Made by a program: the position numbers and the translations under genes | In this document: piece by piece, positions 20,297 to 58,413 of the stretch | Position numbering within the stretch: the first letter of the stretch is position 1 | Layout of the letters: every line of letters starts with the position of its first letter | Origin: Pristiophorus japonicus | Taxonomy: Eukaryota | DNA length: 64,000 nt | Assembly (NCBI RefSeq): GCF_044704955.1 | Contig: NC_091990.1 | Span: 177,010,001 to 177,074,000 of the forward strand | Reading direction: 5' to 3' | Notes under the pieces: generated by a model | Databases searched by the model: none | Seen by the model: the letters and a program-made list of their open reading frames with translations, nothing else | Told to the model about the DNA's origin: nothing

Positions 20297-20401
20297 CAGA
20301 ACAAAAACCAATTGGACCGATTATTGGAGGCATCTTTGGTTCTGCTGTGCTGCTTTGTGCAGTGTGTTTAGGAGTTTGTATCTGGAAGAAAAAATCTAAA
20401 G
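20297..20401 (+). CDS. Transmembrane exon of the NCR3LG1-like receptor
   Basis: Not in the ORF track. TAGCAG acceptor and GTAAAG donor at 20402; 105 nt, phase 1-1. Reads AEQKPIGPIIGGIFGSAVLLCAVCLGVCIWKKKSK, a hydrophobic helix plus basic stop-transfer, with no stop codon. Confidence 0.88.
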
Positions 20402-21179
20402 GTAAAGTCCTTTTCATCTTCATAAAGAACAACCAAAAATTTTAAAGTGAAAACTACTTGGTTATTGGACTCGTATGTGACAATTTGTTTCAAGATGTTA
20501 AGTATTGTTATTGTACTCAACTGTAGAAAAATAATGATTTCTACACAAGTAACCACAATTTGTGGATTGCTCTTTTCTCTCTCTAACAATGATTTTGACG
20601 AACATTAACTGGCCTCATTGTGATAATTATTGGTGTCACTGCAGGCTAGTAATCCTTTCATCACAAGTCTCTATTCTGGTTTGTAGAAATGATTCTAATT
20701 AAATCGACCCAACTCTTCTGGTTCTGCTGCTAACGTTGTGCATTTTAAACAATAACACTTTCCTTTCAGCTAATATTCTGCAAATTCAACACAAGTAACA
20801 CAGAGTAAACATAACTGAATTGTTGGGAAATCATTCTTTATATAGATCTAGTCGTTTTGTATTTGAAGATTCACAATAATCAGCACTTTGCTTCTGGTTC
20901 ATTACACTCGGGCAGTGCACGATGTGAGACATTTTTAATTGAAGACGTATCAAAAATCATTTGGCTCTAACAAGATATCAGTTAAAATGGTGATTAACTA
21001 TTATGGGTTGGTGTTAAAGTTGGGTCTGTCAGCTGGAAACAGGAACCTTTACTTCACTTGGCAGATGTTGACGATATTTCATATGTCGAGGCTTTAATAT
21101 GCTGTTTGCTTACGTTTCAAGAAATAATTTTCCTTATCGTTCATGTGGACATCATTAAAGGCGGAGTGTAAAAATGTGT

Positions 21180-21255
21180 TTTTTTTATTCGTTTCTGCGA
21201 TGTGGCATCGCTGACATGGTCAGCATTTATTGTCCCTCCCTAATTGCCGTTGAAA
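21180..21255 (-). mobile_element. 3' tail of a HER/HE1-type LINE or SINE
   Basis: The reverse complement matches the 3' end of the 40965-42150 LINE (ggga...caataaatgctg...). Confidence 0.55.
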
Positions 21256-21647
21256 GGGATTAAAATTTAAAATCACATGAAAAGCTGCTCCTCTTTTAAT
21301 TATTTGATCAAAGTGAGGACATGAGACATTAATGGAAGAACTGGTGAAATTCATCATTTGAACTATGAATTAAATTTTCCTATTTAAGTTGATAATGTCA
21401 GGATAATTCTGTGTTTTCCATACATACTATAGAGAGCTTAAACTATAAGGATCTAGAATGATGTACTTTTAAAATTGTCACATTCAAATTCCATTTGCTA
21501 TGGATCCAGGTCAGTTTGTGTGCTGGCTTATTTACTTTGACTGCATTGTTGTTTAATGAAAAACAAAACCGAAGGAAAGAGAGGATGTCACTGGCACACC
21601 ACTTCTTGAGGAGAGCCATTCCAAATCTGAAAGAGGAAATTCATTAA

Positions 21648-22250
21648 CCATCATCATCATAGCCAGCCCCTCGAATCGAGGATGACTTGTTTCACGTCAA
21701 AAAGTTCACACGTGTTTCTATGAAGGACCTAAAATTCCAGGTCCCGAACTACATCCTGAAGGGTGGAAGATGCCTGTGCATGGATTTTTTTAACGTGTGG
21801 TGACCGTTGCACACCAGCCACCACACGGGCTTGACAGAGCTAGGTCTTGGTCCAGTAGCAAGGATTAACCAAGACAACCGGAGACCAGCTCTGCTGCACT
21901 GACCTAGTGCGCGCACATATCGCAGTGTAGGCTAGCCCATGCTGCCCCTGGGCCCTTGCCTCTTCTGGGGCCCGAATTCACACCTCTCCTGGGCCCCGAA
22001 CTCACGCCTCTCCTGGGCCCCGATCACATCACTCTACAATCTCTCGCCGTTCCTTCGCCCCGACCTTGCCACTCCTGCTGTACCTGCCCATTCTCCAATC
22101 ACCGACCTGAACCTTGGTGACGTCCCTTTTCACTGCCGTTACTCTCCTGCTCCAGCACGTGCTGCTCTCTGGAGTGGTACACCGCCACACTGCTCCTTCC
22201 GCTCCCGGCCTGCTCCGATGGTGCTCGCAGGCCGGGGGCCACTCAGACTG
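21648..22250 (-). mobile_element. SINE-like element with (ATG)n tail, copy 1
   Basis: Homologous to 44030-44430; catcatcatcatag tail on the + strand and a GC-rich head. Confidence 0.6.
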
Positions 22251-22833
22251 CTGGGCCACTCAAACTTTCATAGTAGCAAATTCTATATTTTATTTCTCTC
22301 GGCACAAAAGTTAGAAGCTTAAGTGTCAGTTTCATCTTCGTAGACTCATAGAAATGCTTCTCTATTTTTTTTTAACAACCAGAATGTTTATGTCAATTGT
22401 AAGATTTCCATTCTTATCAGTGTACTCTGAACACACTCAGCCATATAATCTATAAATATGAGCATCCAGATAACTTCACAATGGATTTGAATGGGAGAGA
22501 GATATTCCAAACTTAATACTCCAGATTCAAAGTTTCCAATGTTGGGACACCATAAAGCAATTTTTCCTCACTTGATATTAAAAGCCCAATTATTGGAAGT
22601 TTTCCTGGAACTAAACAGGTTTTCAACTGCTAAAGACAAAGTCCTTGGACCAGAAATCAGTGCCATTCAACAGGCATGCTATCAGCTGAAAATGCAGTGG
22701 CTTTGCATGCAGAAAATCCACCCCTCCCTTCCCCAGCTCATGGAAACCCGACCTGCAGGAGAACAAATGCCGGTTGTGCTTATGACCAGAATTACCAGCA
22801 GTGAAGACTGATGGAGCAAATACAGTGTGGTTA

Positions 22834-25800
22834 TGTCATGTATTTAACTGTCATTGTAACCCATGTATAAACTGACGAGTTGTACACTGTGAGAACATTG
22901 ACCACTAGGTGGTGAACTTGTGGGAGACACTCCTAACCTGGTCTTTCAGGTATAAAAGGGGAAGCTCCACCCACCTTCATCACTTCAGTGCTGGAATAAA
23001 AGTTGCTGGTCACAGAGTGACCCTCTCTCAAGCATGGACCTTGTGTGCATTTGTACTGTATAGTAAGGACATATCATTGGCGACGAGAAACTAGGATTTA
23101 AACCACGCGAGCATGGCCACTAGCAGCAGGGACGAGAGGTACTGTGTTGATGATGATTGGGACGACTTTATTGAGAGACTACAGCAAAGCTTCATCACTA
23201 AGGAATGGCTGGGACAGGATTCGGTCGACAAACGCAGGGCTCATCTCCTGACCGTTTGTGGGTCCAGGATGTACTCCCTGATGAAGGACCTTCTAGCGCT
23301 AGAGAAGCCTTCGGACAAGACTTTTGAAGAGCTCAGTAAGTTGATCGGGGAACACCTTAAACCGGCGAGCAGCATGCACATGGCAAGACACCGGTTTTAT
23401 ACGCACCGGCGGCGAGAAGGACAAAGCGTTCCAGACTTCATGGCAGACCTCCGGCGACTGGCGAGCCTATGTAAGTTCCCAGATGCATGCAGAGCGGAGA
23501 TGCTGCGAGACATTTTTATTGAGGGCATCGGGCACGCTGGGGTTTTCAGGAAACTGATTGAGACCAAAGACTTGACCCTGGAAACAGCGGCTTTGATGGC
23601 CCAGACATTTATCTCAGGGGAGGAAGAAACCAGAATGATGTTTGACAAAAATATTGGTTTAAATGCAGCAAATGGACAGTGAGTCAACATTGATAACGCG
23701 GCACACAGTTCTCCAGGCAGACAGTGGCAATCGGACATGCCCGAGCATGTAGTCGAATCCAAGGGGGGAATTCAACAGAGACAATGGCTAGCTGAACAGC
23801 GATTCACGCCATCGCAGGGGACAATGCGGCCAGTAATGGGGCCATCAACACCTGTTAATGGTGCGCTTAAGGACAGTTACAGAGACAGTCAGAGATGACC
23901 GACTGGTAATGGGCCTTTTGTTTCCTACAACGGCTCATGTTGGAAGTGTGGAGGCAAACACACAGCCAGAGCTTGCAGGTATCAGCAATACACCTGCAGA
24001 AATTGCAATGTCAGCGGTCACTTGGCGCGTATGTGCAGGAAGCCTGCAGCCAGATTGATGTATGAGGAGGACGGGGACGATGTAAGCCCTACGGGGCCAA
24101 ATGGACACTGGGGGAAATCGCTGGAAGCTGAAGTTCAGCGAGTTCATGTGGAGCACATATACAGTTCATACACCAGGACGCACCAATAATGATGAAAGTG
24201 CTCCTCAATGGAATCCCAGTATCAATGGAGCTAGACACAGAGGCCATCCAGTCCCTGATGAGTATCAAACAGTTCGACAAGTTGTGGGCATCCAAGGCCA
24301 GGAGGCCAAAATTATTGCCGATTGACGCACAGCTATGGACATAAACAAAGGAGATCATTCCGGTGCTAGGCAGCGTCACGGTAGCCGTGACCCACAAAGA
24401 TTCGGAGAACAGGTTGCCACTCTGGATTGTTCCGGGGGACGGTCCCGTACTACTGGCTGGCTGACATCAACTGGAAATGGGGCGATGTCAATGCAATTTC
24501 TTCTGTGGAGCGAATGTCATGTTCACAGGTCCTGGACAAATTTGATTCACTATTTCAGCCTGGCATTGGCACTTTCATGGGGACCAAGGTAGTGATTCAC
24601 ATAAACCTGGACGCCAGGCCAGTACATCACAAGGCCAGAGCGGTGCCGTACGTGATGCGGGAAAATATAGAAGGCGAATAGGACCACCTGCTGAGGGAAG
24701 GCATCATCTCACCAGTCGAATTCAGTGACTGGGCGAGCCCGATTGTGCCGGTGCTCAAGGCGGATGGGTCGGTCAGGCTATGTGGTGATTACAAGGCCAC
24801 CATCAATCGGGTGTCACTCCAAGACCAGTACCCGCTACCAAGAGCAGAGGACCTCTTCGCGACGCTATCCGGTGGCAAACTTTTTTCAAAATTGGACCTA
24901 AACCTCAGCTTACATGACCCAGGAGCTGGTGAGTGAGTTGAAGAAGCTGACCACCATCACGACACACAAGGGGTTGTTTGAGTACAACAGATGTCCGTTT
25001 GGGATTCGCTCGGCTGCCGCGACCTTTCAACGCAATATGGAAAGCCTCCTCAAGTCGATTCCAAGGATAGTGGTTTTTCAAGACAACATCCTCATCACAG
25101 GTTGTTATACTGAAGAACACCTCCACAACCTGGAGGAGGTGCTACGCAGACTGGACTGGGTAGGTCTGCGACTGAAAAAGGCAAAGTGTGTCTTTCTTGC
25201 TCCAGAGATAGAATTCCTGGGGATGAGGGTAGCAGCAGACTGCGTCCAAAACAGAAGTGATCCAAAGAGCACTCAGACCCCGTAACACGACGGAACTACG
25301 TTCGTTCCTCGGGCTCCTGAACTATTTTGGTAACTTTCTTCCCAAATTGAGCATGCTGTTAGAGCCGCTACGTGTGCTCCTACGCAAAGGTCGTGAATGG
25401 GTCTGGGGGGGCAGCCAGGAAAGGGTTTTTGATAGAGCACGAAATTTGTTATGCTCCAACAATCTGTTAACGCTATATGACCCATGTAAGAAACTTATTT
25501 AACGTGTGACGCGTCGTCCTATGGGGTCGGGTGTGTGTTGCAGCATGTGAATGCCAAGGGTCAGTTACAGCCGGTAGCTTATGCCTTCAGTAGTCTGTCC
25601 AAGGCAGAACGGGGCTACGGGACGGTAGAAAAGGAAGTGCTTGTGTGTGTATATGCTGCAAAAAAAAATGCACCAGCACCTGTTCGGCAGGAAATTTGAG
25701 CTGGAGACAGATCACAAACCTCTAACGTCCCTTTTGGCCGACAACAAGGCCATAAATGCAAATGCATTGGCCCGCATACAGAGGTAGGCACTTACGTTAG

Positions 25801-28800
25801 CCGCCTATGACTACACAATTCGGCACAGACTAAGCACTGAAAAGTGCGCTGATGCACTCAGCAGGCTCCCACTAGCCACCACCGAGGGGGCAACCGAGCA
25901 TGCTGCTGAGATGGCCATGGCTGTGGAAGCTTTCAAAAGTGAAGGCTCACCCGTGGCAGCCCGTTAGATCAAATCTGGACAAATAGAGACCCGCTACTGC
26001 CTTTAGTCAAGAAATTTGTCCTTAATGGGGACTGGGCAGTCCCATACGGGGCATGCCCTGAGGAATTCAAACCATTTCACAGGTGCAAGGATGAACTCTC
26101 GATTCAGGCCGATTGCCTACTATGGGGAAACCGAGTAGTCATGCCCCAGATGGGCAGAGAGATGTTCATCAGAGAACTCCACAATAAGCATCCGGGCATT
26201 GTCATGATGAAGGCAATTGTCAGGTCACACGTTTGGTGGCCAGGGATAGATGCAGACCTGGAACATTGTGTTCGCAGGTGCAACACGTGCGCCCAGCTGG
26301 GCAATGCGCCCAGGGAAGCCCCCCTTAGCCTCTGGTCCTGGCCCGCCAAACCATGGTCACGTATCCATGTGAACTATGCAGGTCCTTTCATGGGAAAAAT
26401 GTTTTTGGTTGTAGTCGACGCCTACTCCAAATGGATCGAGTGTGACGTTCTCAATTCAAGCACATCCTCGGCCACGGTAGAAAGTCTACGGGCAATGTTC
26501 GCCGCCCATGGTCTACCTGACGTCTTGGTCAGTGACAATGGCCTGTGCTTTACAAGCATTGAATTCCAGGACTTCATGGCAGGAAATGGTATCAACCACG
26601 TCAGAACGGCATCGTTCAAGCTGGCCTCAAAAGGCCAGGCGGAACGAGCAGTGCAGATAATCAAACAGGGGATGCTCAGAATCCAAGGGGGTTCCCTACA
26701 AAGGCGCTTATCACGCCTCATGTTGGCGAATAGATCCCGACCACACTCGCTCACAGGGGTCCCACCCGCAGAGCTGCTAATGAAAAGGATGCTCAAAACT
26801 AGGTTATCCCTTTTCCACCAACCATGAAAGAAATTGTTGAGAGCAGGCACCAGTCACAATGTGACTACCACGACTGGAATGCGAGGGCGCAATGTATTGA
26901 TGTCAATGACCTTGTCTTTGTTCTCAACTACGCTGCAGGGCCTAAATGGCTCGCAGGCACTGTGATTGCCAAAGAGGGGAATAGGATTCTGGTAGTTAAA
27001 CTTACCGGTGGACAAATGTAAGGGGAGCTTGGGGTGTGGATTCGAATCCACACTCCCCTGGTGTTCTGTATGTGCGATTTATGAGGATGAGTGAGTAACG
27101 AGGCACCAGACACAGTGGGTAAGAGTGCAAAATGGCTAATGTTGTTTATTTAGAATAGTAAACACAAAGATAGAGGGCATAGGAAGAGGTCATAAATAGC
27201 AGTAATGGCACAATCTCACTGAACAACACGAAAAATTCTCGCAACAGGGAAGGGGAAGATAAGAGGTTGAAACATTCCACTCACACATAACCCCACCTCC
27301 CACTTTCACCCTTCTTACCAATTCCTATCCTAAATTGAGTCTGTGAGGGGGTTTGGGCTATACTCACAATCCTATCAACTCCGGGGTTCTGGGGGGCACT
27401 TATTCCAGCTCGGGGTCCCTCTGGGGTGGGCTTTACGTTGTTGGTCTTTTCGGCTTTCCTCCTCGATGTTGCGTCGGTTTCTTCTATTTGCCTCTTGGTT
27501 AGCTCCTAAGCAAAAAGCTGCTGGAGTTAAGCACACCTTCCCCAGAGCGAGGGCTCTGTGAAGGGCTGACTCAACTCCCCTTTAACTCAACTCAACCACA
27601 ACGAAAATGGACTCCCACCTTCTTAACTCAACTCTACAACTCAATGCAAAAGCTGACTCCAACCTCCAACCTCCCAACTCCGACCTCCAACCCCCTTTGT
27701 GTGTTTTTGCAGCTTTTTCTTATCGTCCCTTCATCTTCGCGCCAAAACTGCATGCCATTGTCTTGGGTCTTCCTTGAATAAAAAGGGGTGTGAATGGCAG
27801 TTCGATGTGTATCGATCTGTATGGAATGGGAGATTAGCCACACCTCCTGTATCCTATCGCTCGCTGATGGGGTGAATGAAGATGATTGTTCACTATCTCG
27901 ACAGAGGTACCATTCTGTCTGGGCTGGCCAAAATGATTGCATCAGACCTGTGGGCCTTTGTTTAATTATTCAAACTGATACCCTTTGTGTTGCCTTGTGT
28001 ATTACTGGGGAGATTTTGCCTGGACATGTTGCCCCTTCTGTGAGGGTTTTACACGAAAAGCTAAAATGTAAAGTTGCCTTGTATCCATTTTCCTGGAAGA
28101 ACCGAATGTACACTCTTCCCCCTTACGGTAGCTGGCTCATTCCCCGTCCGGTTCCATGCCCCTGCAACACTGTCTGTTACTGTGCAGGGTGGCCAGAGTC
28201 CCATCATCCTCTGCGGTTTACAGGCTGTTGGCTGCAGTTGGTCATTTTAAACATGGCATCTTCCCATTCTCCCTGCCACATGTCTCTGTGGTTGGTTTTG
28301 CAGAACCTTACACAAATCTGCCGCAAACATGTGGATCAAACACAAAGGAGGTTCAGCAACCCCATAGAAGAAGCAGTGGAAGAACACGATGTAGAGTTCA
28401 CTCCTCCACAGGTGACCGAACACCGGAACCAAGTGGAGGAGAACCCAGTCACAGTGGGCAGTCCGGACAGGTCTGAGGCACCGCAAACAGCAGACACTCA
28501 GGCCAGCGCCCAACAACCGGAGCCCCTACTCAGGCGCTCTACAAGGGACGTAAACCACCAGAGAGACTCAACCTGTGATCGCAATAAGATTTTGGGGGGG
28601 AGGTGATGTCATGTATTTAACTGTCATTGTAACCCATGTATAAACTGACGAGTTGTACACTTTGAGAACATTGACCACTAGGTGGTGAACTTGTGGGAGA
28701 CACTCCTAACCTGGTCTTTCAGGTATAAAAGGGGAAGCTCTACCCACCTTCATCACTTCAGTGCTGGAATAAAAGTTGCTGGTCACAGAGTGAACTTCTC

Positions 28801-33857: not shown

Positions 33858-35520
33858 TTATATAAGGTAAGTCCTTCCTGTGGGACTGCTTAAATTTTCA
33901 TCCCTTATGGCCTTAATCATAGTGCGTGCCCTGACGTATCGTTTGACCTGTTTAATTCGTGCACATGTTAATCCCATCATGACCATTAGAACCAGGCCCT
34001 GTATTACTACAAGTACATGTGGTATTATTCTTATCCATGGGTGGATCTGAATATCAAGTCCAATGTCCCACAGCTTTGAGTACCAGAGCTGATCAGCCAG
34101 CATCGCGTTAGTGTCTCTCTGTAAGTTGTCTACTTCTTCCATCAGCTGGATATACTGTCGTCTTTGATTCTGGATTCCTTGCACCAAACGTAATTCTTCC
34201 TCATACCTTGTGGTTCCCATACCGCCTCCTTGTACCCCTCTCGGAGGGTATCCGTGACCGTTCCGTGGATGATTTCCGTTGTCTTGGGATGTATGTGGTA
34301 TCCATTTATGTCTATTTTTCCCATGGGCCTGAAACCGAAGTTAGGGTTGGTGATGACACAGGGGGTGACTCCTCCTCTAGTCTTAATCATCGGGTTGGCT
34401 GCTCCTGTGCTCACGCACCAAAGCTCCATTCCCTTGTGGAGCAGCGATTGTTTCGGAATCGTGTTCGAGAGGAGTGATACTCAGCATGCATCCGTTTGTT
34501 TGGTGGAATCTGCAATCATCATTCGTCATTCGTGGCATACCTTGACATAAAAGCACTAAATTATTTTTATAGCAATCAGTTATGTCAATGCCTTTCGTAC
34601 TAGTTTAATTTTAATCACCCATCTGGCAGGCTGACGGTAACGCAACCGAGTTTGATTTCTTTCTTCACCAATATTATCGATCTGGTATAAGAGGTCTCCC
34701 TTTGTTACATCATAGTGTGATATGGACAACATAAATCCGATCATATTCACCCGCCCAGTAATACATCTGAAATTTGGCACCCATGCGTGACTATTCCTTC
34801 GTACCTCGCATTTGTCATTCATTTTTTTATCTGGAGTCCAATTGTTAAGTATGCTGTTCGGGATCCAATCTGGTATGTCGCCATTCTGGAGTTGCTCCAA
34901 GTTATGTTGTACTTCACTTAATCCAGGCCCCATACCTGGAGCGAACTATCTCAGCTTGTAATCGTTTACTTATGTCGTTCCCCATTGAGTGGATCAAATT
35001 TATTGTCTTGGCATGCTTCTGTAATGTATGGGCCACTTGTAACAGTTCCCCTTCCACGCCATCTCCCAACCACGCTTGTAGGGCTTGGTTATCCAAGTCC
35101 CTCCCCAGTAAACCCCTCAAGACTATGCCATTAAGTTGTTAGCCTGGTCGTATATTGCATACAGGTCTATGGAATTCATCGTCGTAATCCCTGCCGCATA
35201 ACCCGTGCCTAGTGTTTCCAGTATTCTCCTTTTTGTTCGACCTTGTCCTGTTCCCTTTCTGAAATTAAATCTCAGGGTAGTGGATTCTGGGCCTTCGAGG
35301 ATCCGTTGTGCCAGGTTCTGGTATAGACTTATAGTTTCATTCCCACAGAAGCTAGGAAGAATGATATCCATTAGATTTAGGTTAAGTAGTCGCTGAAGCA
35401 CCCCAATTATATCCTTTGTTTAGATTCTTTTATTCCTAGCCCCCCTTTGGCTCCAGTCTTTATGGACGGGCTTATGGGGGGACTTGCATGGTTGTGCTGG
35501 GAAGAGTTGTTGTCCCCAGG
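33858..35520 (-). pseudogene. env: Envelope/fusion glycoprotein with F-type architecture, fragmented
   Basis: Furin site RTKR, then a fusion-peptide-like ILETLGTGYAAGITTMNSIDL, a heptad region, a Cys-rich mid-region, HR2, a W-rich stem, TM IIPHVLVVIQGLVLMVMMGLTC and a basic tail. Spread over several frames. Confidence 0.8.
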
Positions 35521-44518: not shown

Positions 44519-47500
44519 TAGTGTGTTCCTAACACAGATGAGACTGCACACAGGGAGGTTAAAGTAACAGTGACCTCAGTCATTATTGAGACACTCCAGA
44601 GTGAGAAACAGGCCTTCGGGGCCGGCTTATAGACGGTGTTCCCAAGGGATGCTGGGATCCCTTGGGACTTCAGGGGATGCGCTCCCTGGTGGCGGAACAT
44701 GGGAGTGCATGCTTTACAGATACACACCATCACTCCCCGCAAATTCAAAGTGAAAACTATTTACAAGGTGAGGCGGTCGGGAGCCTTTCTTTCTCTGGTG
44801 GACCGCCTCGGTACAAATGTCTGTTCTGGTGTGTTGGCTGTGCCCTCGCTGGGCTGGCATGTTGTTGGCCCTGCTGGGCTGCTGGGTGAGCCTGGCCTTG
44901 CTGATCTGTTGGGCGTGATGGGTTCGATTTCCTCGTCCTGCGTGGTGTCGTTGATCCTTTGGGTGTGTGTTGTGGGCTCGTAAAAGGTGGTGTCTGCTGT
45001 GGGTTGTTCAGGGCAGTCTGTGAACCGCAGCCTTGTTTGGTTCAGGTGCTTTCTGCAAATTTATCCATTGTCTAGTTTGACTACATAAACCCTATTCCTT
45101 TCTTTAGCTATCACCGTGCCCGCGATCCACTTGGGACCATAGTTTAGCACATACACAGGGTCATTCAGATCAATTTCCTGTGACACAGTGGCGCGACCAT
45201 CGTTTACAATTTGTTGCTGCCGCCTGTTCTCGACCTGATCATGCAGGGTGGGGTGACCCAGCGAGAGTCTGGTTTTAAGTGTCCTTTTCATGAGTAGCTC
45301 AGCCAGGGGCACCCCTGTGAGGGCGTGGGGTCTCGTGCGGTAGCTGAGCAGTACTCGGGACAGGCGGGTTTGAGTGAGCCTTCTGTGACTCGTTTAAGGC
45401 TCTGTTTGATTGTTTGTACTGCCCGCTCTGCCTGTCCATTGGAGGCTGATTTAAACGGGGCCGAGGTGACATGTTTTATCCCATTGCAGGTCATGAATTT
45501 TTTTAATTCGGCACTGGTGAAACATGGCCCGTTATCACTGACCAGTATGTCAGGCAGGCCTTGGGTGGCAAACATGGCCCTCAGGCTTTTAATGGTGGCA
45601 GTGGCGGTGCTTCCCGACATTATTTCACATTCAATCCATTTTGCAAAAGCACCCATCACCACCAGGAACATTTTACCGAGGAACGGGCCCGCATAGTCGA
45701 CATGGATCCTCGACCATGGTCTGGAGGGCCAGGACCACAAATTTAGTGGTGCCTCTCTGGGCGCGTTGCTCAACTGAGCACACACGCTGCATTGCCGTAC
45801 ACAGGACTCTAAGTCAGAGTGGATACCGGGCCACCACACGTGGGATCTGGCTATCGCTTTCATCATTACTATACCCGGGTGTGGGCTGTGGTGATCCGAG
45901 ATGAACGTCTCCCTGCCCTTTTTTGGTAGCACTACGCAGTTACCCCACAACAGGCAGTCTGCCTGAATGGTCAGCTTGTCTTGTCGCTGCTGGAACGGCT
46001 TGATTAGCTCTTGCATTTCAACGGGGATGCTGGCCCAGCTCCCATGCAGTCCAGTTTTTTACTAGGGACAGCAGAGGATCTTGGCTGGTCCAAGTCCTAA
46101 TCTGCTGGGCCGTGACAGGTGATTTATCATTTTCAAACGCTTCCCTGACCATCAACAAGTCTGCGGGCTGCGCCACCATCAACAAGTTTGCAGGCTGTGC
46201 CATTTCCATCCCCGTGGTGGGCAATGGTAGCCGACTGAGAGCATCCGCACAGTTCTCGGTGCCTGGCCTGCGGCGGATGCTGATAGTGCAAGTGCCCACC
46301 TTTGTATGCAGGCTGAGGCATTAGTATTTATCCACTTGTTTTCAGTGTACAGGGATGTGAGGGGCTTGTGATCGGTTTCCAGCTCAAATTTGAGGCCAAA
46401 CAGGTACTGATGCATTTTCTTTACCCCGAACACACACGCTAATGCCTCTTTCTCAATCATGCTGTAGGCCCTCTCGGCCTCAGACAAGCTCCTGGAAGCA
46501 TAGGCGACAGGTTGCAACTTCCCCGCAATGTTAGCTTGTTGTAATACACACCCGACTCCGTACAATGACGCATCACATGTCTCTTACACGGGTTATCCAA
46601 TACAAGCAGCTTGTTGGAGCATAAAATGTTTCTGGCTTTCTCAAAAGCAATTACTTGTTTTTTTCCCCATACCCAGTTCTCACCTTTACCCAATAAGACA
46701 TGCAGGGGCTCTAAGAGAGTGCGTTATCCTGGTAGGAAGTTAACAAAATAGTTGAGGAGTCCCAGGAACGACCGCAGCTCCGTGATGTTCTGTGGCCTGG
46801 GCACGTTCCTGATAGCCTCTGTCTTGGCGTTTGTGGGCCGAATGCCGTCCGCTGCGATCTTTCTCCCCAAAAACTCCACTTCTGTTGCCATGAAGACGCA
46901 TTTCGACCTCTTCAGCCACAGCCCTATGTGATCCAGTCGCTGGAGGACCTCCTGCAGGTTTTGTAGGTGCTCAACGGTGTCCCGACCCGTGACCAATATG
47001 TCGTCCTGAAAAACCACCGTGCGTGATACCGACTTGAGTAGGCTCTCCATGTTTCTCTGGAAGATTGCTGCAGCCGACCGAATTCCAAATGGGCATCTGT
47101 TGTAGACTAACAGTCCCTTGTGCATGTTGATGCAGATGAGGCCCTTCGAAGACTCCTCCAGCTCCTGCGTCATGTAGGCCGAAGTCAGGTCGAGTTTGGT
47201 GAACGTCTTGCCTCCTGCCAACATCGCAAATAGGTCGTCTGCCTCAGGTAGAAACATAGAAACATAGAAAAATAGATGCAGGAGTAGGCCATTCGGCCCT
47301 TCGAGCCTGCACCGCCATTCAATAAGATCATGGCTGATCATTCCCTCGGTACCCCTTTCCTGCTTTTTCTCCATATCCCTTGATCCCCTTAGCCGTAAGG
47401 GCCATATCTAACTCCCTCTTGAATATATCCAATGAACTGGCATCAACAACTCTCTGCGGCAGGGAATTCCACAGGTTAACAACTCTCTGAGTGAAGACGT

Positions 47501-50085
47501 TTCTCCTCATCTCAGTCCTAAATGGCCTGCCCCTTATCCTAACACTATGTCCCCTGGTTCTGGACTTCCCCAACATCGGGAACATTCTTCCCGCATCTAA
47601 CCTGTCCAGTCCCGTCAGAATTTTATATATTTCTATGAGATCCCCTCTCATCCTTCTAAACACCAGTGAATAAAGGCCCAGTTGATCCAGTCTCTCCTCA
47701 TATGACAGCCCAGGCATCTCAGGAATCAGTCTGGTGAACCTTTGCTGCACTCCCTCAATAGCAAGAACGTCCTTCCTCAGACTAGGAGACCAAAACTGAA
47801 CACAATATTCCAGGTGAGGCCTCACCAAGGCCCTGTACAACTGTAGTAAGACGTCCATTCTTCTATATTCAAATCCCCTAGCTATGAAGACCAACATACC
47901 ATTTGCCGCCTTTACCGCCTGCTGTACCTGCATGCCCACTTTCAGTGACTGATGAACCATGACACCCAGGTCTCGTTGCACCTCCCCTTTTCCTAGTCTG
48001 CTGCCATTCAGATTATATTCTGCCTTCGTGTTTTTGCCCCCAAAATGGATAACCTCACATTTATCCACAATATACTGCATCTGCCATGTATTTACCCATT
48101 CACCTAACCTGTCCAAGTCACCCTGCAGCCACTTAGCGTCCTCCTCACAGCTCACACCGCCACCCAGTTTAGTGTCATCTGCAAACTTGGAGATATTACA
48201 CTCGATTCCTTCATCCAAATTGTTAATGTATATTGTAAAGAGCTGGGATATTGGTCCTGTAGCGAGAAACGATTAATAGTTACTTTATAATCGCCGCAAA
48301 TCCTGACCGTGCCATCACTTTTGAGTACTGGAATAATCGGGCTGGCCCACTAGCTGAATTCCACTGGGGAGATGATGCCCTCGCGTTGCAGCCTGTCCAG
48401 CTCGATTTCCACTCTCTCCCTCATCATGTGAGGTACCGCTCGCGCCTTGTGCTGAATGGGTCGTGCCTCTGGGACCAAGTGGATCCGCATCTTCGCCCCG
48501 GAAAAGTTTCCAATGCCTGGCTCAAAAGGGGAAGGAAATTTGTGAAGAACCTGGGTACATGAGGCCTCATCGACATGTGATAGCGCTCGGATGTCATCCC
48601 AGTTCCAGCGGATTTTGCCCAGCTAGCTCCTTCCAAGCAGTATGGGGCCATTGCCCGGGACAATCCAGAGTGGCAGTTCGTGCACGTGCCTTTGTAGGTG
48701 TCCTTGACAATGGCGCTGCCCAGGACAGTGATGAGCTCTTTGGTGTATGTTCTCAGTTTCATGTGAATGGTGCTCAGGGCTGGTCTGAGTGCCTTGTTGC
48801 ACCACAGTCTCTCAAACATCTTTTTACTCATGATGGATTGGCTAGCACCGGTGTCCAGTTCCATGGCTATGGGTAAGCCATTCAATTTTACATTTAGCAT
48901 TATAAGTGGACATTTCATCGAAAATGTGTGCACCCCATGTACTTCAGCATACGCCTCCTCTCTCTGAGGCTCGAAATTGCTTTGATCGACCATGGACCGA
49001 TCTTCCTCTGCCACATGGTGGTTAGCAGGTTTTGCAGAGCTTGCAGCTCACCTGCAAGCTCGTTGGAGGTGCCCCATTGTTCCACAGCTCTTGCAAACAT
49101 ACCCTTTGAAGTGGCATGAATAGGCTGAATGGAAGCCTCCACAATGCCAACCAGGTGTGAATTGCCTTGCATGCATCCTTTGTTGCGGACTCTGAGTCAT
49201 CTGGGTCACTTGAGGCCTGCTGGCAGTTGCAGACTGGTAGTTTTTGCCCTGTACATTTCTGCTCGCAAACACAGTTCCAGTTAATTTATGAACATTGTTT
49301 GCACTTGTGTGCTGAGAGATTTGTTTGGTGTTATCACTGGTGGACATAACCGCCTGTGTCAACGCAATGGCCTTACTGAGGGTCGGTGTCTCTACAGTCA
49401 AAAGTTTTCGTAGGATGGTCTCGTGCCAATGCCCAGTACAAAAAAGTCTCTGGGAATTTGCTCCAAGTAGCCATTAAACTCACATTGTTCTGCAAGTCGC
49501 CTTAGCTTGGCGATGTAGCTCGTCACTTCCTGACCTTCAGATCGCTGGCACGTGTAGAACCGATACCTCGCCATCAGCACGCTCTCCCTCGGGTTAAGAT
49601 GCTCCCGAACCAATGTACACAGCTCCTCATACGACTTATCTGTGGGTTTCACCGGAGCTGGAAGATTCTTCATGAAGCTGTAGGTCGGTGCCCCGCAGAC
49701 CGTGAGGAGGAACGCTCTCCTTTTTGCAGCGCTTCCTTCTCCGTCCAGCTCGTTGGGTACAAAGTACTGGTCTAGCCATTTGACATAGGCTTCCCAGTCC
49801 TCACACTCCGAGAACTTCTCCAGGATGCCCACAGTTTGCTGCATCTTTGCGCTGGATTCGTATACTCGTCGCCAGTTATTGTGTTCCTAACACACGAGAC
49901 TGCACACAGAGAGGTTAAAGTAACAGTGACCTCAGTCTTTATGAAGACACTCCAGAGTGAGGAACAGGCCTTAGGGGCTGGCTTATATACAGTGCTCCCA
50001 AGGGATGCTGGGATCCTTTGGGACTTCAGGGGATGCACTCCCTAGTGGTGGAACATGGGAGTGCATGCTTTACAGATACACAACA
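44519..50085 (-). mobile_element. Full-length decayed Gypsy LTR retrotransposon
   Basis: LTRs at 44519-44729 and 49877-50085, TSD GGTTT, PBS TGGCGACGAG. Gag, PR (LDTGA), RT (FQDD), RNase H and integrase fragments. The RT is interrupted by a CR1. Confidence 0.93.
47249..48247 (-). mobile_element. 5'-truncated CR1 inserted in the Gypsy RT
   Basis: ORF 47328-48218 is a CR1 RT C-terminus; (TTCTATGT)n tail. Confidence 0.93.
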
Positions 50086-51430
50086 GGTTTCCCCGATTAT
50101 GATGTCAGTTTCATTCTAGCGCCTTCTGTGGGGATCTCTGGTGCCCAGGAACAGTGATGTAATTAAGCTGGCTGAGCAGCCAATCAGATTGAAGAATTCT
50201 GACAGACCGCAAACCAGGAAATAAAGAGCACTGATTATAATTTGCATTTTAATCATTTTACATAAAGAAAAAAAAAGATTGGGACATATAAATGGAATAA
50301 GGTTAGAAACTGGAGAATCATAAACAAACTTTTAAAAAAGAAGATAAATAATTTTTATTATTTAAAAAAATGTTTGGGACTATTATCATGGAATGGAGGG
50401 AATGACACTCCAGAATTATTCGATTAGTTTTTCAAGGCCAGAGACATTGTTCAGCAGTAATGATGACTTAGTACACGACTAAAAACTCAATTACACCTCA
50501 TTCAACAAGGATGAACTTTTTCAATGGTCTTTACAGTGAGAATAATGCACAAAAAGTTCACGTCAAATCAGTGATTTCTAATGATTGCATCTGCGAAGCC
50601 TGCAACAGCACACCCTGTGGAGGAGCAGGGTATCGCTGACAGCAACTTCCAGATTTCGCTGTTTATTTGCACATTGAGGACCCCTAAAGTTGCTATCAGT
50701 TTTACACACTAATGACAGCGAAGTCTGACAGATCTGCCATCATTACAACCATAAATTCCGAGCCAATAGGATGCATAAGGCTGCAATTATCTGCAAAAAT
50801 ACACATTTTTGGAAACATTGCTTTCCAGTCTACCTATATACGTCTATCCATCCAACATGACATCAATAAATCAGCTCATCACCCTTGTGCCTTCCCTTAG
50901 TGACTGTCTTGTGTGTGACTGTCTTGTGTGTGCCTTTGCCTATCGTACTGATGTCACACAGTGCTACTCCAGTGGCTACAGCATGGCTGGTGGAAGGCTG
51001 CTGACTTTCAGTGGGGGACACTGCAAATGGCTGTGGAGACAACCTCGAGGAGCCAGTGGCTGGGAGTGTCTAATTGAGTGACAGTGATTCTTTTTCTTCT
51101 TCACTCTTCTCTTCCTTTTCTTGGTCACCACTGGCTGGGCAGGCTGGATTTCTTGGGTGTGTGAAATGAGGAAGGCACAAGGGTGGAATTGTGGTGAGGG
51201 GAGGACGGGAAAGCAAGAGGTGCATGTTTATACCATGTGCACCTTGTAAATCAGAAGATATTGTGTGATGAGGGGGAAGTGGGATGTGGGAAGGAGGATA
51301 ATGAATTAGGATACCAGCATCTTGTAACCTTTCAGCCCTGACACTGGCCAAGGACTTAGTCACGCACCTGCCAAGAATAGTCCATACCGTCTCCTCCAAG
51401 GGGGTGAGGTGAAGCTAGGAATGGGAACTG

Positions 51431-54227
51431 TGTTATGTTTAGAATAACTCCACAAGACTGTTTATCTTAAGCTCAAACTGTTGTGACCTTGGTCTCTTTA
51501 TTGTAACTCCAGAGTGAGGAGGCAGCATGGTAGACTGCCTTTTATACCTGCTTGCCCAGGGTGTGCAGGTGACCCTTGGGTCTCCCACCGGTGCGCCCCC
51601 TGGTGGCAAGTCTTATACATTGGTAATGTTTACGTACATAACATCATTCCCTCCCAAAGTCTTATGTACAAGTTGAGGCGATCCCGGGCTCTGCGTTCCC
51701 GGGTTGATCACCTGAGTTGAAATCCTGGATGGGGGAAGTCAGTCGGATCATTGCTGCACGGCAGCGCGGCTGGTCTGATCAGACTGTCGGGCATGGTGGG
51801 TTCATCCTTGTGGTTGACCGCGAGATCGATTGCTGGTTGGGTGTGTGTGGGTGGATCAATGATGGTAATGTCCTCTTCAAACTGTTCTTGATTGTCAGTG
51901 AACCGCAGTTTGGTCTGATCCAAGTGCTTTCTGCATGTTTGTCCGTTCAAAAGTTTGACAAAAAACACTCTATTCCCCTCTTTGGCTAACAATGTGCCAG
52001 CAACCCATTTGGGACCATGACCATAATTAAGAACAAACACAGGGTCATTAACTTCAATGTTGCGTGATACAGCCGCGCGATCGTAGTACATGTTATGCCA
52101 GTGACGCCTGGTTTCTACATGATCATTGAGATCTGGGTGGACTAAGGAGAGCTTGGTTTTGAGTGCTCTTTTCATTAGCAATTCTGCAAGGGGAACCTCA
52201 GTAAGCGAGTGGGGTTGTATGCGGTAGCTGAGCAGAATCCAAGATAGCCAGGTCTGCAGGGAACCGTCTGTCACGCGTTTCAAGCTCTGCTTGATGGTTT
52301 GGACTGCCCGTTCCGCTTGTTCATTGGATGCGGGCTTAAACGGCGTAGACCTGACATGCTTTATGCCTTTGCAGGTCATGAACTCTTTGAATTCCGAGCT
52401 GGTGAAGCATGGTCCATTGTCACTAACAAGGACGTTGGCAAACCATGGGTGGCGAACATGGCCGGAGGCTTTCAATGGTGGCAGTGGACGTACATGACGA
52501 CATTATTGTACATTCAATCCATTTAGAATAAGCGTCCACTGGTACTTGGAACATCTTTCCGAGAAAGGGGCCAGCGAAATCTACGTGGACCCTTGACTAC
52601 GGTTTGGAGGGCCATGACCATAGACTCAGTGGGGCCTCCCCTGGTGCATTGCTCATCTGTGAGCAAGTTGCATTGGTGTATGCATGACTCCAATTCAGAG
52701 TCAATACTGGGCCACCAAATGGCGACCTGGCGATAGCCTTCATCATGACTAGGCCTGGGTGGGTACTGTGAAGGTCACGTATAAATGTTTCCCTGCCTTT
52801 TTTGGACAAAATTACATGATTCCCCCATAGGAAGCAGTCCGAATAGATGGACATTTTGTCCTTGCGTCGGTGGAACGGGTTAATTTCGACTTGCATTTCA
52901 CCTGGGACCGCCGACCAGCTCCCATTGAGGACACAGCTTTTCACTAGTGATAGCACCGGGTGCTGGCTAGTCCAGGTCCTGATCTGGCGAGCCGTGTCGG
53001 GTGACCCCTCGCTCTCAAAAGCTTCTATTACAAGGAGCAAGTCTGCGGATTGCGCCATTTCCACCCCAGTGGTGAGCAATGGTAGCCGACTGAGGGCATC
53101 CGCACAGTTCTCAGTGCCTGGTCTGTGGCGGATTACATAATCATATGCAGATAACGTTAGTGCCCATCTTTGGATGCGGGACGAAGCATTGGTGTTAATA
53201 CCTTTACTTTCTGAGAACAACGAAATGAGCGGCTTGTGGTCGGTTTCGAGCTCGAACCGGGGCCCAAATAGGAATTGGTGCATTTTCTTAACCCCGTATA
53301 CGCATGCTAATGCTTCTTTTTCAACCATACTGTAGGCTCTTTCAGCCTCAGATAACCTTCTGGACGCATATGCAACTGGTTGCAGTTTGCCTGACCCATT
53401 GGCTTGCTGTAACACACAACCGACACCGTACGAAGATGCATCACAAGCTAGTACTAAACGTTTACACGGGTCTACGATACTTGTTGGAACATAGCAGGTT
53501 TCTGGCCTTGTTAAAGGCTGTCTCTTCAGCTTTAGCCCAAACCCAGTCGTCACCCTTGCGTAGCAATAAATGCAATGGTTCCCCAAATGCACTTCCCCCA
53601 AAAATCCAGCAAATATACACTGTTCCGCAAGGCGTCTTAGGTCGGCGACATAGGCCGCCACATCCTGGCCCTCGGAGCGGTGGTGCATATAAAAGCGATA
53701 CCTGGCCATTAAGATGCTCTCCTTCAGCTTCAGATGTTCCAGAACCAGCGTGCACAACTCTTCATATGTCTTGTCCGTTGGTTTCATCGGTGCTAGCAGA
53801 TTTTTGATGAGGCCATATATCATGGGCCCGCAAAGGGTGAGGAGAATCGCCCTGCGCTTGATCGCGGTTTCTGCCCTTTCTAGCTCGTTGGCCACGAAGT
53901 ACTAGATGAGACGCTCAAGGAAGGCTTCCCAATCATCATCCTCAACAAATCTCTCAAGAATACCAACGGCAGCCATAACTGCATGAAAGTTCATGATCTG
54001 TTATTCATCGCCAATTGTTATGTTTAGAATAACTCCACAAGACTGTATATCTTAATCTCAAACTGTTGTGACCTTGGTCTCTTTATTGTAACTCTAGTGT
54101 GAGGAGGCAGCATGCTAGACTGCCTTTTATATCTGCTTGCCCAGGGTGTGCAGGTGACCCTGGGTCTCCCACCAGTGCGCCCCCTGGTGGCAAGTCTTAC
54201 ACACTGATAATGTTTACATACATAACA
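51431..54227 (-). mobile_element. Internally deleted Gypsy element (PR and RT missing)
   Basis: LTRs at 51431-51643 and 54016-54227; near-TSD AACTG/AGCTG; degenerate PBS. The gag N-terminus is joined at about 53590 to RNase H/integrase. Confidence 0.9.
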
Positions 54228-55619
54228 AGCTGTACCTTGTGTTTGATACAGATTGTTAGTAGTTGAATGATGGGGTGTGCGTGCAATGAGCAGTGTGTGA
54301 GGCAGTGTTGCAGTTGGTAGGGAGCAGCTTTTGAAGATGCATCAATTGACCTTGACCACTTGTTTGAGGTCATGAAGCTTCTTTGGACAGTGGAGCCAGG
54401 TCGCATGGGCAACATTTCTGGCAGTGACAGTCTAGGTGATCTGGTCCCACATCATACTTCCTAGCCCCTGTGGGTAGAGAACCTCTCTTGGAGTTCTGAC
54501 CCCCAGCACAAGGCTAGAGTGCTGCATGCGAGACCCTGGGTGCCCTATCCCCGGCTTGTTGAGCCACTTATGTCAGTGCTGAAGTGCTTTTACTTTTTTT
54601 TAAGGTGTGGGTGGCAGTTCAGCTTTAAGAGCTGAAGCTTTCATTTTGGAAATATTTTTCATGTTTTTTTTTCAGGAGGCAGTTGAGCTGTAATGGCTAA
54701 AAACTGTCTACTTTTAAATTATTTTTGTCCATTTGAGAAGGTAGTTCCCCTGTAAGGGACTGACATTGCTTTCTAAAATGACAGCCTTGGTTTAAGACAA
54801 TGCTGCTCTTGCTCCAGGGATGCTGCGGCCGCATTACATTTGGCCTCCTGCTGAGATTAGTGCCGGAAACCGAGTCGTGTAAGGTTGGTTTAGCGAAGAA
54901 CTATTTTATATTAGCAGGCGGAACAAAAATACCGGTGCTGCATGCGTTATTATTTCAGGCGGCCGTTAACTTTGGCCCGTGGTGGCACTGGCAGGTTTCT
55001 ACCCTACTCCAATTTCTAGGCCTACATGTGGGATTTAACATCCACCACAAACACAACAGTGTAGTTCTTGGCCTCTGCAATGAAACCCTGAATCCTGGTT
55101 TCACCGCTAAAACCTCAACCAACCCGAACACCAGAGAGACACCAATGAGCAGGAACTCTGCTTATCTCTGCACATGTATGTATTAACTATGTATGAGTCA
55201 TGATTGAATCGGCATAGAAAGAAGAAAGACTTGCATTTATATAGCACCTTTCAAGACCACCAGATGTGTCACAGAGCTTTACAGCCAATGAAGAATTATA
55301 GGATTCATCCTGGGTGGAGGTTCCAATACAATCAAAAAAAACAGGTTGGTTTGGGATTAGTTACATTGATAAAAATCTGAATTCCAACCTGAACTCGCTT
55401 CTAACCCGTCCACTTCCAGTTTTAATGGAGGCGGGCCGGGGTGGAGGGGGGGTCAGCCAATGCGCTGCCAGGAGGTGGGGCGTCAATTTAAATATTATAG
55501 TGTGGCTGGAGGCCTCTTCTTTGTTTTTAACTGCAGTTGGATGGGATTTGCACACTTCACAAAAACCTGGCAGTGACAGCAAGGTGGGGTCTGCTGCATA
55601 ACCCACCCAATAATAGGCT

Positions 55620-55860
55620 GGAACTTGCTGAAAAAGTAATGGCGTGTGAATGACACATACCGTTATTAATGAGCAAATCGTCCAGCAGGTTCAGTGGATA
55701 ACGAGATACCCCGTGTATTGCGAATCGCCACAAGTTGCTGGACAATTTGCCGTTAGCTTTGCAAAAACAGTAGCTTACCCTTAACTACCCCGTGTGTTTC
55801 ATGAAGTTCCTGCATTTGCACATTATTTGCCCATTAAACATGCCACAGAAAGTGAAGTAT
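55620..55860 (+). repeat. Copy of the flank that follows each atypical Ig exon
   Basis: gaacttgctgaaaaagt...gagcaaatcgtccagcaggttcagtggataacgagatacccc recurs at 58505-58660 and 63638-63860. Confidence 0.85.
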
Positions 55861-56329
55861 GGTAATTGATTCCTTCAGGTAGTGAATTGTTGGGAGTTTT
55901 GGAAAACATCACATTTTACATTTTTTTTCTTAATTTTCCTTTTATTCCTTTTTTCTCTGTCTCTCTTAATGCAATCTCTTTTCCTCTCTATTTCTCTTTC
56001 TGTATATGACTTTCCTTTAATTTTCCCAATTTTCTTCTCAAATATTCCTGTTTATTTCTCAATCCGTCAATCTCATTAATTAAGGAGCTACACTGTTGGT
56101 CCTCTCGTTCACACAGTTCCCAGCAGCCCTGTTGATCTCGCTGCACTGTTATCAACTCTCACTTCCAGCAATGTGGGGCACAAATAATTTTGAGCTGAAT
56201 GCTCCAGGGAAATGTCTAAATAACAGCGCGCACCCTGAGATGCCCCACTCCATCAAATTCAGGCCCATTATTTCCCCTCAGTATTATGGTGAAATTTGAT
56301 AAGTCTTGAATTGATCAGATGTGTGAAAC

Positions 56330-57400
56330 CACAGCAATAATGAATTGCCCAGAGGTGATTTGATGTTTTATATCAGCACCATAGGAATTACTGAACTGAA
56401 AGCCCTTTTGCAACTTTACATCAGTATCACGCACATCGCAGCTGGAAAAGCTGCCAGAGCCTTGCACATTTGTTGCTGCTCCTCCAAGATCAACCTTTGT
56501 TGATGGCCGTCGATGTTCAGCATCTGCAACCAGTTGGGCAGAGCTTGGAGCACCATGTGCCCTCCGGTGAGGACTCTCCACTGCTGTCCCTGTCTCCAGT
56601 GTCTGCTCGTGCTCCCTTGTGACGTGTGAGCCATCATGTGACAACACCACTCTACATTCTCGCTGGACCCACCGATGTGTGCATATCTGCGCTGGTGCTG
56701 GGTCTGCATGGAGACCCAGAGAATGGAGCTCCCTCTGTGAAGTCGTCTTCGTCCTCCAGCTGGACAGTGTGTGGGCAGGGGGAAGGGTTGCGGGGTGGCA
56801 TTTGATGAACCTGTGGGAGAATAAAGATATGAATTGGACCTGTTATTACAATGTTACAACAGTGCCTACACCCCAATGTTATTTGCAGCTGCACGGTAGG
56901 TTGGTGTGAGGAGTGACGTGCAGGAGGAGGCTGGGAAAGGCAGAGTAATGGGTTTGGGGTGACACGCACATCAGGATGTAGTTGAATGTTGCATTGTACT
57001 CACCTTTCCTGACCTCATCAGATCATTAAATCTTTTCCGGCATTAAATCCAGGAGCGGCTGACAATACCCCTGCTGCTCGCTTCTTGGGGCGATCTCCAG
57101 CCCAGCCCTCTTGGTTTCTCTGGTTGTTCTTTTCTTGCCGCTGCCAGGGACCAAGACCGCCCTGCGTGCTCTGACTCCCTGGGTCAGGACTTCCAGTGAG
57201 GCATCTGGGAACCTGGGTGCAGCGTCTGGTGCTGTGACTCCATCCTACCTGCACCCACACAAATCTCTTCAATATATAGTAATAGCCCCCTCTCCCAACC
57301 ACCTGTATGCCTCCTCCAACAACCTTCAGCTCCGATGTGTGCTCGGCTCCTTTAAATATCTGAGCTGAATGGGAGCCATCAAGACGTCATCAGACTCGTT
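56330..57400 (-). mobile_element. Harbinger Myb/SANT gene remnant
   Basis: CRKRFNDL-type exon end plus a GTGAGT donor at about 57000, with an acidic downstream exon. Similar remnants flank the 51431-54227 Gypsy. Confidence 0.5.
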
Positions 57401-57987
57401 CCATTTAATCGGCCGGGGAACCCGAATGACTATTACAATTGATGTAATGTAGTTAAACGCGCAGTGCAGAACGTGCTGTTAAAAACTTCGGGATGGTGAC
57501 CCGCTGTGGGCACGCACACACTCGCCTCAACTCTCGGGTAAAATCCCGGCCAATGTTTTATTATGGGTTTTGCTGGAAATTTAACCCCCCTCGTAATGGG
57601 TGGATTTTTGTCAAATGGGAAGTTAAAACGTTAACATTCTGAAACACGAACCCAACCCGTCAAGAAACCTACGATCGGTAACCACATCGATTTGGCTGGT
57701 CTCAGAAAATAGGGGCTCTACATTAATAATTTTTTTGTTTTGTGGAAAGGACAGTTTCTGATTTTGTAAGTACAGTGATGTGCTGTGTACGGTAGAATCT
57801 TCATTGCCATTTACAGATGATTAATTGTGCAGTTTAACACCATGACGATGCATAAGGCTGCAATCCTCTGCAATGACACACCTTTTGGAACATTGCTATT
57901 CAGTTTGTACATCATCTCTGAACAAGGATGTACATGAGTGAGTTGGAACATAAAGTTTATTTCACATTGTTTTGTTTTCTGTTGTAG

Positions 57988-58413
57988 ATCCTCCTACAAT
58001 TAGTGATATCACAAAACCGGATAAAATCAATCACAATGAGAAAATCGATCTGAAGTGGGAAGTCACTCTGTTCCGTCGAGAGACGGTGAACATTGTTACA
58101 TCCTTGAAGAGGAAAGGGGAACAGGAAACCAAGAAGCTATTTCACTGGCAAATTCCAATCGGGAGCTTGCCAGCAGAAAAGAGAAAATATATTCCCCTCA
58201 CAAGTGTATTAGAGACCTGCAAGGAAGATGACTCCTTCACTGCTGCGGTGCCAGAATTACAACGTAATGCTGAAAAGAATTTCAGCATATACTGCAGCGT
58301 TACCCTGTGTCCTGATGTATCCAAGGATGATGGCGCTGAGCTAATTATTGAAGTTAAACAGGGCACTTCTGAGAAAGTTTGTACTAAAACAGCAGTACTG
58401 AACGTTACAGCAG
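57988..58413 (+). CDS. Atypical C1-like Ig-fold exon lacking the canonical cysteines (probable downstream exon of the same gene)
   Basis: Strong acceptor ttttgttttctgttgtag and donor CAG|GTAATT; 426 nt open, phase 1-1. DPPTISDITKP...IDLKWEVTLF...RNAEKNFS...LCPDVSKDDGAELIIEVKQ...VLNVTA follows C1 strand spacing, but the B- and F-strand Cys are replaced by W and I. Confidence 0.75.

Follow-up and report, generated by a model that had tools for sequence, protein, structure and literature searches.

The window, the whole 64,000-nucleotide stretch of Pristiophorus japonicus DNA that was analysed, contains V, C1 and transmembrane (TM) exons belonging to a B7-H6 (NCR3LG1)-like gene and, downstream of them, the first members of a tandem array of immunoglobulin (Ig)-fold exons, here termed X. 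At least five B7-H6-like genes are clustered at this locus; the human B7-H6 gene is single copy. For a further minus-strand candidate located between two V exons (gene C) no TM of its own was found in the searches, and it was interpreted as a duplicate of the gene B ectodomain. A KCNJ11-like ORF is located at G000:C14:176636818; paralog G is about 0.1 Mb away from it and the window gene about 0.4 Mb. The window gene comprises the following features:

G000:C14:177008323, about 1.7 kb before window base 1: leader exon, GT donor
11642-11980, + strand: V-set Ig exon, phase 1-1, Pfam V-set E 2e-12
17834-18142, + strand: extracellular C1-set exon with both cysteines kept, phase 1-1, splice sites present, Pfam C1-set E 5e-13
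20297-20401, + strand: TM exon, open, phase 1-1, with a basic KKKSK stop-transfer at its end
21558-21635, + strand: 78-base linker exon, homologue of the one that follows the TM in other sharks, acceptor AT, donor GA
21636-57400, no strand assigned: repeat-inflated part of the intron with LTR-retrotransposon and LINE pieces, Pfam matches to integrase and RNase H
55609-55784, + strand: remnant of an X-unit 3' intron flank, 86% identical to 58494-58658
57988-58413, + strand: X1, first intact post-TM Ig exon, a derived c1 domain, 426 bases, open, phase 1-1
63118-63540, + strand: X2, broken copy with a frameshift, acceptor absent at the expected position

Exon phase and splice sites bear out the original prediction that the TM exon ends open in phase 1 without a stop; its donor is GT, and its acceptor AG is a NAGNAG site of which the second AG is likewise in frame. 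This TM exon matches its counterpart in the duplicate gene B at 91% identity. With a signal peptide in the leader exon and a single TM, the window gene encodes a type I protein. When PDB was searched, human B7-H6 was its top single-domain match (43.9 bits), while two tandem-domain CD276 chains outscored B7-H6 on whole sequences in the same comparison; for the close orthologue P0007 (E 9e-25) and for axolotl P0020 (E 4e-36) human B7-H6 was the best match. Human B7-H6, the NKp30 ligand, shares with the shark gene the V + C1 ectodomain, the single TM and the KCNJ11 synteny, human NCR3LG1 being described in PMC8065166 as adjoining KCNJ11/ABCC8. The tails differ: the human one is Gag-like, with GAG polyprotein homology and ITIM, SH2 and SH3 motifs described in PMC2715080, whereas that of the window gene is made of Ig-fold exons. 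The Gag-like tail is a human feature, and the amphibian proteins named NCR3LG1 by NCBI are without it.

The intron between TM and X1 spans 37.6 kb and is filled with repeats; 88% of positions 20402-57987 match other places in the DNA analysed, and collinearity of 21636-57400 with gene B is limited to shared repeats. Exon 57988-58413 had been taken for the next supported plus-strand exon after the TM, and it is intact, but the 78-base linker precedes it. Since the acceptor of this linker reads AT and its donor GA, it is likely skipped in the window copy. The remnant at 55609-55784 was likely left behind by a deleted X copy. Between TM and X1 no V or C1 exons were found on the plus strand, and exon scans and a leader search revealed neither a leader-like nor a TM-like exon, which speaks against X being a separate gene with its own leader or downstream TM.

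X1 itself is intact and phase 1-1 as predicted, with a pyrimidine-rich AG acceptor and a GTAATT donor. Intact homologues with 56-62% identity occur in other sharks, and thus the open exon is not a product of chance. Profile alignment to the two-cysteine c2 domain of the B7-H6-like family (probability 98.2) confirmed that the canonical cysteines and the core Trp are replaced, with Trp23 and Ile120 occupying the positions of the B-strand and F-strand Cys, respectively, and Thr37 that of the C-strand Trp, and it placed the predicted long internal insertion, which is variable, around residues 55-80. The term 'cysteine-less' was nevertheless wrong, as four further cysteines are present at 77, 102, 107 and 131 and the canonical pair alone is missing. 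Pfam gave no Ig family match for X1, only one weak PH_29 match under the cut-off, and its ESM Atlas matches, prokaryotic look-alikes below 0.9 only, were set aside. Structure prediction of the 142-aa domain, one of the checks originally proposed, yielded an Ig beta-sandwich with a pLDDT of 82.8 and a Z of 11.6 to Ig domains. The closest structural matches were V-type domains at 9-11% identity, likely owing to extra strands in the insertion.

In total, 18 tandem X copies were counted, 15 of them intact and three broken; 16 lie beyond the window, 14 of these intact. All exons are phase 1-1, so that X copies can come, go or be skipped with the frame unbroken. Seven copies are identical and recur with a 3.8-kb period; either the array expanded very recently or the assembly could have introduced an artefact here. 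The small exons of the window copy are decaying, with mutations in the linker splice sites and the spacer donor. No public protein of the window copy was present among the matches of a search whose range excluded products of more than 2,000 aa.

The connection of TM and X across the long intron is supported by gene B, an inverted duplicate in which the equivalent intron measures 6.3 kb. The two genes are 91% identical over 4.0 kb of C1-TM-linker and 87% identical in X1 plus its 5' flank, and the 3' end is common to both. Each of the paralogs B, D, E, F and G has Ig exons after the TM, the order TM-then-X is found in public models from five shark species, and in a tree the window ectodomain clusters with three such TM-then-X shark models (support 100/99). 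The homologue search that had been suggested likewise recovered chondrichthyan and amphibian NCR3LG1-like proteins with Ig domains C-terminal to the TM. With the layout found in orthologues and paralogs and an Ig fold predicted for X, the window gene very probably has the proposed V-C1-TM-[Ig]n organization, and as judged from these comparisons its product is probably expressed with TM spliced to X.

A V-C1-TM-(C1)x4-8 layout is present from chimaera to amphibians. Members of this ancestral type include axolotl XP_069479877 and Rhinophrynus KAM4723194, both named NCR3LG1 by NCBI, further models from coelacanth, sturgeon, reedfish, chimaera, ray and shark, and paralogs F and G at the locus. The sturgeon-type P0066 (784 aa, V-C1-TM-c1-c4) is encoded in full by a single Logan contig of 2,754 bases, as would fit a spliced transcript, and in a full-length paralog model the tail formed six folded domains, with the c1 loop disordered. 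Identity between cartilaginous fish and sarcopterygians is 0.28-0.38 for the ancestral tail domains and 0.37 for the ectodomain. X descends from a C1-set domain, namely c1, which opens the tail in the V-C1-TM-(C1)n ancestor: it nests inside the c1 clade (35 rows, 96/92), it has the above profile match to c2, and Pfam C1-set is matched by c1 of paralogs F and G (E 2e-3 and 1e-4). Ancestral-type and X-type genes have the same ectodomain, one TM and Ig domains behind it; they differ in that the former carry c1..c7, whereas the latter carry c1 only, in 1-15 copies, plus short charged spacer exons. X is without the core Trp and the B-strand Cys, the latter being kept by c1 in 67%. The motif [DE]xxx[LIM][LI] occurs in the c1 insertion of 18/39 proteins (2.9 expected from shuffles), in 1/16 X copies here and in 0/22 X repeats of other sharks. 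What is new in the shark lineage is that c1 alone was kept, lost its canonical cysteines, core Trp and dileucine-type motif, and was amplified. Labile tails had been assumed for this family; the Ig tail, however, is an old family state and not a sign of lability in the shark lineage alone. Amniote or teleost members numbered 0/41 among the matches of one search and 0/22 among those of another (top 7,996 candidates scored each time). No description of an Ig tail on B7-H6 was found in the literature searched, which covered part of the specialist sources.

Of 57 homologous proteins (isoforms counted), 51 have a single TM followed by Ig domains, and none has two TMs. The post-TM side is the more positive one in 49 of the 51 TM-bearing homologues, and this charge bias speaks in favour of a likely cytosolic location of the X array as deduced from topology. 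Behind the TM, N-glycosylation sequons show no depletion (observed/expected 0.3-1.5 there vs 1.2-1.35 in the ectodomain). The original argument that disulfide loss marks a cytosolic domain holds only partially: X is without the canonical pair, but in 97-100% of the 39 proteins compared, c2 and c3 of the ancestral tail still have the two cysteines. In c4, c5 and c6 mostly one of the two is retained.

In the dN/dS check on the X copies no purifying selection was found. Omega was 1.82 for 16 distinct copies (2dL 12.8 against 1) and 1.81 over eight deep lineages, whereas flanking introns read as triplets gave control values of 0.80-1.21. The X core alone reached 1.4, not significant (2dL 3.4), and the insertion 4.0 in a segment picked after its variability had been seen. 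Gene conversion between tandem X copies may distort tree-based omega. The ectodomain value was 0.77 (three sequences, not significant). Thus, the X modules likely change faster than the adjacent non-coding DNA, which would fit a host-pathogen arms race.

Several other readings were weighed against these data. It is improbable that the window copy is a decaying gene, or one for a short-tailed V-C1-TM protein, with the array as left-over, recently amplified DNA. The repeat-filled intron, the dead linker splice sites, the mutated spacer donor, the three broken and seven identical X copies and the 14-residue tail that read-through of the TM donor would yield, as read from the sequence, are what such a copy might present; however, the exons for leader, V, C1 and TM as well as 15 X exons are undamaged and have canonical sites. 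At least 8/13 deep lineages being intact has a P of 0.02-0.11 under neutral point mutation (indels uncounted), a flank of 249 bases shows 1.2 frame-breaking indels per pair, and dead DNA should not give omega above 1. Extracellular action of the tail domains in TM-skipping secreted isoforms, as a soluble NKp30 decoy with the domains mere passengers in the membrane form, is very improbable. The TM exon is indeed skipped in the paralog isoforms P0047 and P0051 of two lamniform sharks, each with a TM-bearing isoform beside it, and the paired cysteines of c2 and c3 and the undepleted sequons would suit the outside of the cell. Against this, most models contain a TM, c4 to c6 mostly have one canonical cysteine and X has neither, and no TM-skipping X-type model was found among the models retrieved.

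A real layout with the array as a host-side scaffold or spacer for trafficking, cytoskeleton or signalling adaptors, changing fast through copy turnover rather than pathogens, appears unlikely. Conservation of the ancestral tail is similar to that of the ectodomain, and the sorting-type motif of c1 suggests host adaptors, but this motif is gone from X, and X omega exceeds 1 while the neutral flanks stay near 1. On balance, we favour as overall explanation a V-C1-TM protein whose tandem X array would serve as a decoy or docking tail; a decoy or evasion role as such is put forward tentatively. The type I protein would show its V-C1 ectodomain, predicted to bind NKp30, to NK-type cells, and would extend into the cytosol a tail of up to 15 Ig modules that lack the disulfide. 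In the ancestor, the dileucine-type sorting motif of the flexible c1 loop would govern the amount of ligand kept at the surface. The shark lineage would then have dropped the remaining tail domains and the motif while c1 multiplied and diversified, and intracellular proteins, likely of viral origin, that attempt to remove the ligand from the cell surface would meet in the X array a variable surface on which they dock or are decoyed. More speculative, and rather doubtful, is the idea that the array, positively selected in a paralog specific to sharks, is a germline-diversified intracellular Ig repertoire which binds viral proteins directed at ligand removal and couples this contact to surface display of B7-H6, with the human Gag-like tail as a later convergent bait at the same position.

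C1-set domains are usually regarded as extracellular or lumenal, as in antibodies, TCR, MHC and tapasin. Titin and obscurin are intracellular Ig proteins of the I-set; as would be the case for the X array, their Ig folds function in the cytosol with no reliance on disulfides, but none of them is the tail of a B7 ligand or derives from C1-set domains in that way. A paper on echinoderm NLRs (PMC13133943) uses the phrase 'intracellular Ig domain'. In the X-type genes the diversifying signal sits in X and not in the receptor-binding ectodomain, which points to an intracellular interface. A C1-set tail on B7-H6 from chimaera to amphibians alters the view of the ancestral NKp30 ligand, and with an Ig tail as the ancestral state the Gag-like tail of humans becomes a replacement.

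The exons of gene A, the B7-H6 (NCR3LG1)-like gene of the window, were read as listed below; its leader exon lies 1.7 kb upstream of the window start.

Exons of gene A
11642-11980, + strand, V-set exon, phase 1-1, canonical splice sites
17834-18142, + strand, C1-set exon (outer, extracellular C1), phase 1-1, canonical splice sites
20297-20401, + strand, TM exon, phase 1-1, canonical splice sites
57988-58413, + strand, X1, first copy of the repeated post-TM Ig-fold exon X, open, phase 1-1

X1 was intact and comprised 142 codons, as originally noted, and the observation is real. Pfam yielded no Ig family match for X1; its AlphaFold2 model is a beta-sandwich (pLDDT 82.8) resembling Ig domains (246 Foldseek hits with E <= 0.001; Z 11.6), and the proposed structure prediction on the 142-aa domain thus recovered an Ig fold. 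X1 also aligned (probability 98.2) with the two-cysteine profile of c2, one of the tail Ig domains c1 to c7 behind the TM in ancestral-type V-C1-TM-(c1..c7) proteins. In this alignment Trp23 and Ile120 occupy the B- and F-strand cysteine positions and Thr37 that of the core Trp, confirming the replacements claimed for these residues. The term ‘cysteine-less’ holds for the canonical pair, but not for the domain as a whole, which has four cysteines elsewhere.

Ig domains C-terminal to the TM in NCR3LG1-like proteins, as had been proposed, were found from sharks to amphibians. Sequence searches gave 57 distinct homologues, isoforms counted, from sharks, rays, chimaera, sturgeon, reedfish, coelacanth, frogs and salamanders, those of axolotl and Rhinophrynus being named NCR3LG1 by NCBI. 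Of the 57, 51 have a single TM followed by Ig domains and none carries two TMs; the six lacking a TM are fragments or TM-skipping isoforms. The majority layout is V-C1-TM-c1..c4/c7, with every domain position alignable between lineages. The homologue P0066, which clusters with sturgeon models, is encoded completely on a single 2,754-base Logan contig, which fits a spliced mRNA. The model of P0039, by eye a match to paralog G, contains V, C1, one TM helix and six folded domains; its c1 loop is disordered. X-type models (TM followed by 1-8 X) occurred in five shark species, and in midpoint-rooted trees of 54 and 33 rows, with a single model for each gene, the gene A ectodomain clustered with three of them (support 100/99), while X fell within the c1 clade, separate from c2, c3 and outer C1. 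A third cysteine in outer C1, found in 39/39 ancestral-type proteins, is missing from the window C1 exon.

By ectodomain and synteny, gene A is assigned to the B7-H6 family. It sits in a paralog cluster adjoining a KCNJ11-like gene, a neighbour that human NCR3LG1 shares (PMC8065166). At least five B7-H6-like genes (A, B, D, E, F, G; the doubled ectodomain of B taken as one gene) occupy G000:C14:176.72-177.62 Mb (chromosome coordinates of NC_091990.1), with extra V or C1 matches at 176910103, 176712687 and 176671780. Paralogs B, D, E, F and G have a basic-ended TM exon followed by Ig exons, at a gap of just 1 kb in F. Gene B (G000:C14:177352116-177378885, minus) is an inverted duplicate of gene A: the two are 91% identical over C1-TM-linker and 87% over X1 plus the adjoining 5' sequence, and they share the 3' end. 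It shows an apparent V-C1-V-C1 before the TM, with a stop in the second V; the skate models P0015 and P0017 are likewise V-C1-V-C1-TM.

The TM-to-X distance is 37.6 kb in gene A versus 6.3 kb in gene B, and 88% of the gene A intron matches elsewhere in the chromosomal DNA compared; this is the intron of gene B swollen by repeats. Exon and leader searches of this interval detected neither V nor C1 exons, nor any resembling a leader or a TM; no exon of a separate gene with its own leader or downstream TM turned up. Mobile elements of the window, at 823-3995, 23095-26827, 45288-49886 and 51708-53901, comprise a LINE whose ORF1 is of the esterase type (Pfam Lipase_GDSL_2) and several LTR retrotransposons in decay, in which integrase and RNase H were matched. 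On the minus strand, 33858-35983 carries broken frames with a basic site of furin type and, towards the C-terminus, a hydrophobic segment; it had no match in a Pfam search and may be what remains of an envelope-like part of an LTR element. We infer that the TM exon of gene A is spliced to X. The rival reading, that gene A is a decaying copy, draws on its linker exon (21558-21635), where both splice sites are lost, and on a spacer exon, where the donor is lost; both count against the health of the gene. The array itself comprises 18 X copies on the + strand, from X1 to window coordinate 164,600, 15 of them intact and three broken. Seven DNA-identical X exons at G000:C14:177112328-177143317, with a period of mostly 3.8 kb, reflect either very recent amplification or an assembly artefact.

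A cytosolic array is likely, given the signal peptide, the single TM and the charge bias (positive charge higher after the TM in 49 of the 51 TM-bearing homologues). The argument that disulfide loss fits the cytosol stood in part: V and outer C1 have the canonical pair in all 39 proteins and c1, c4, c5 and c6 mostly retain one cysteine, but c2 and c3 retain both. Since the cysteines agree only in part, neither side of the TM stands out by sequon counts, and a paralog has two isoforms that leave out the TM exon, we keep this placement at likely. By the alternative view, the tail domains act in secreted form; the skipping isoforms, P0047 and P0051 from two sharks, are public models of a G-type paralog predicted to be secreted as V-C1-c1-c4.

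The suggested dN/dS test was run on genes A, B and D, where 23 equal-length copies out of 24 intact ones (a copy with a 3-base deletion was excluded) gave 16 distinct sequences. With three frequency models, none allowing for gene conversion, omega came to 1.82-2.02 (2dL versus omega 1, 12.8-16.9) and 1.81 across eight deep X lineages, against 0.80-1.21 for flanking intron read as triplets (six tests, 14 copies each); pairwise counts gave dN >= dS in 17/19 pairs. The insertion alone reached 4.0 in a window picked after the data were seen, and the remainder 1.4, not significant. A dileucine-type motif in the c1 insertion, present in 18/39 ancestral-type proteins versus 2.9 from shuffling, occurs in 1/16 X copies here and 0/22 repeats of other sharks. 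Linker exons of X-type genes, including 21558-21635, end by eye in a Thr-containing dileucine-like stretch, which might substitute for the lost c1 motif.

Human viruses strip B7-H6 off the cell surface. NK ligands are reportedly the subject of a cytomegalovirus study (PMC5367895). In the mechanism we propose, the ancestral tail would regulate surface display via the c1 loop; in the X-type lineage the c1 domain would have been multiplied and diversified, and the array could counter intracellular antagonists by offering a docking or decoy surface. Alternatively, the array may be a host scaffold. The gene A product is predicted to bind NKp30.

Human B7-H6 has a Gag-like tail (PMC2715080), whereas gene A and its ancestral-type relatives have Ig domains instead. 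The literature searched, with the most relevant specialist papers outside its scope, held no description of an Ig tail on B7-H6, and the family layout may already be familiar to specialists. What the window newly adds is a variant with c1 only, amplified and under positive selection.
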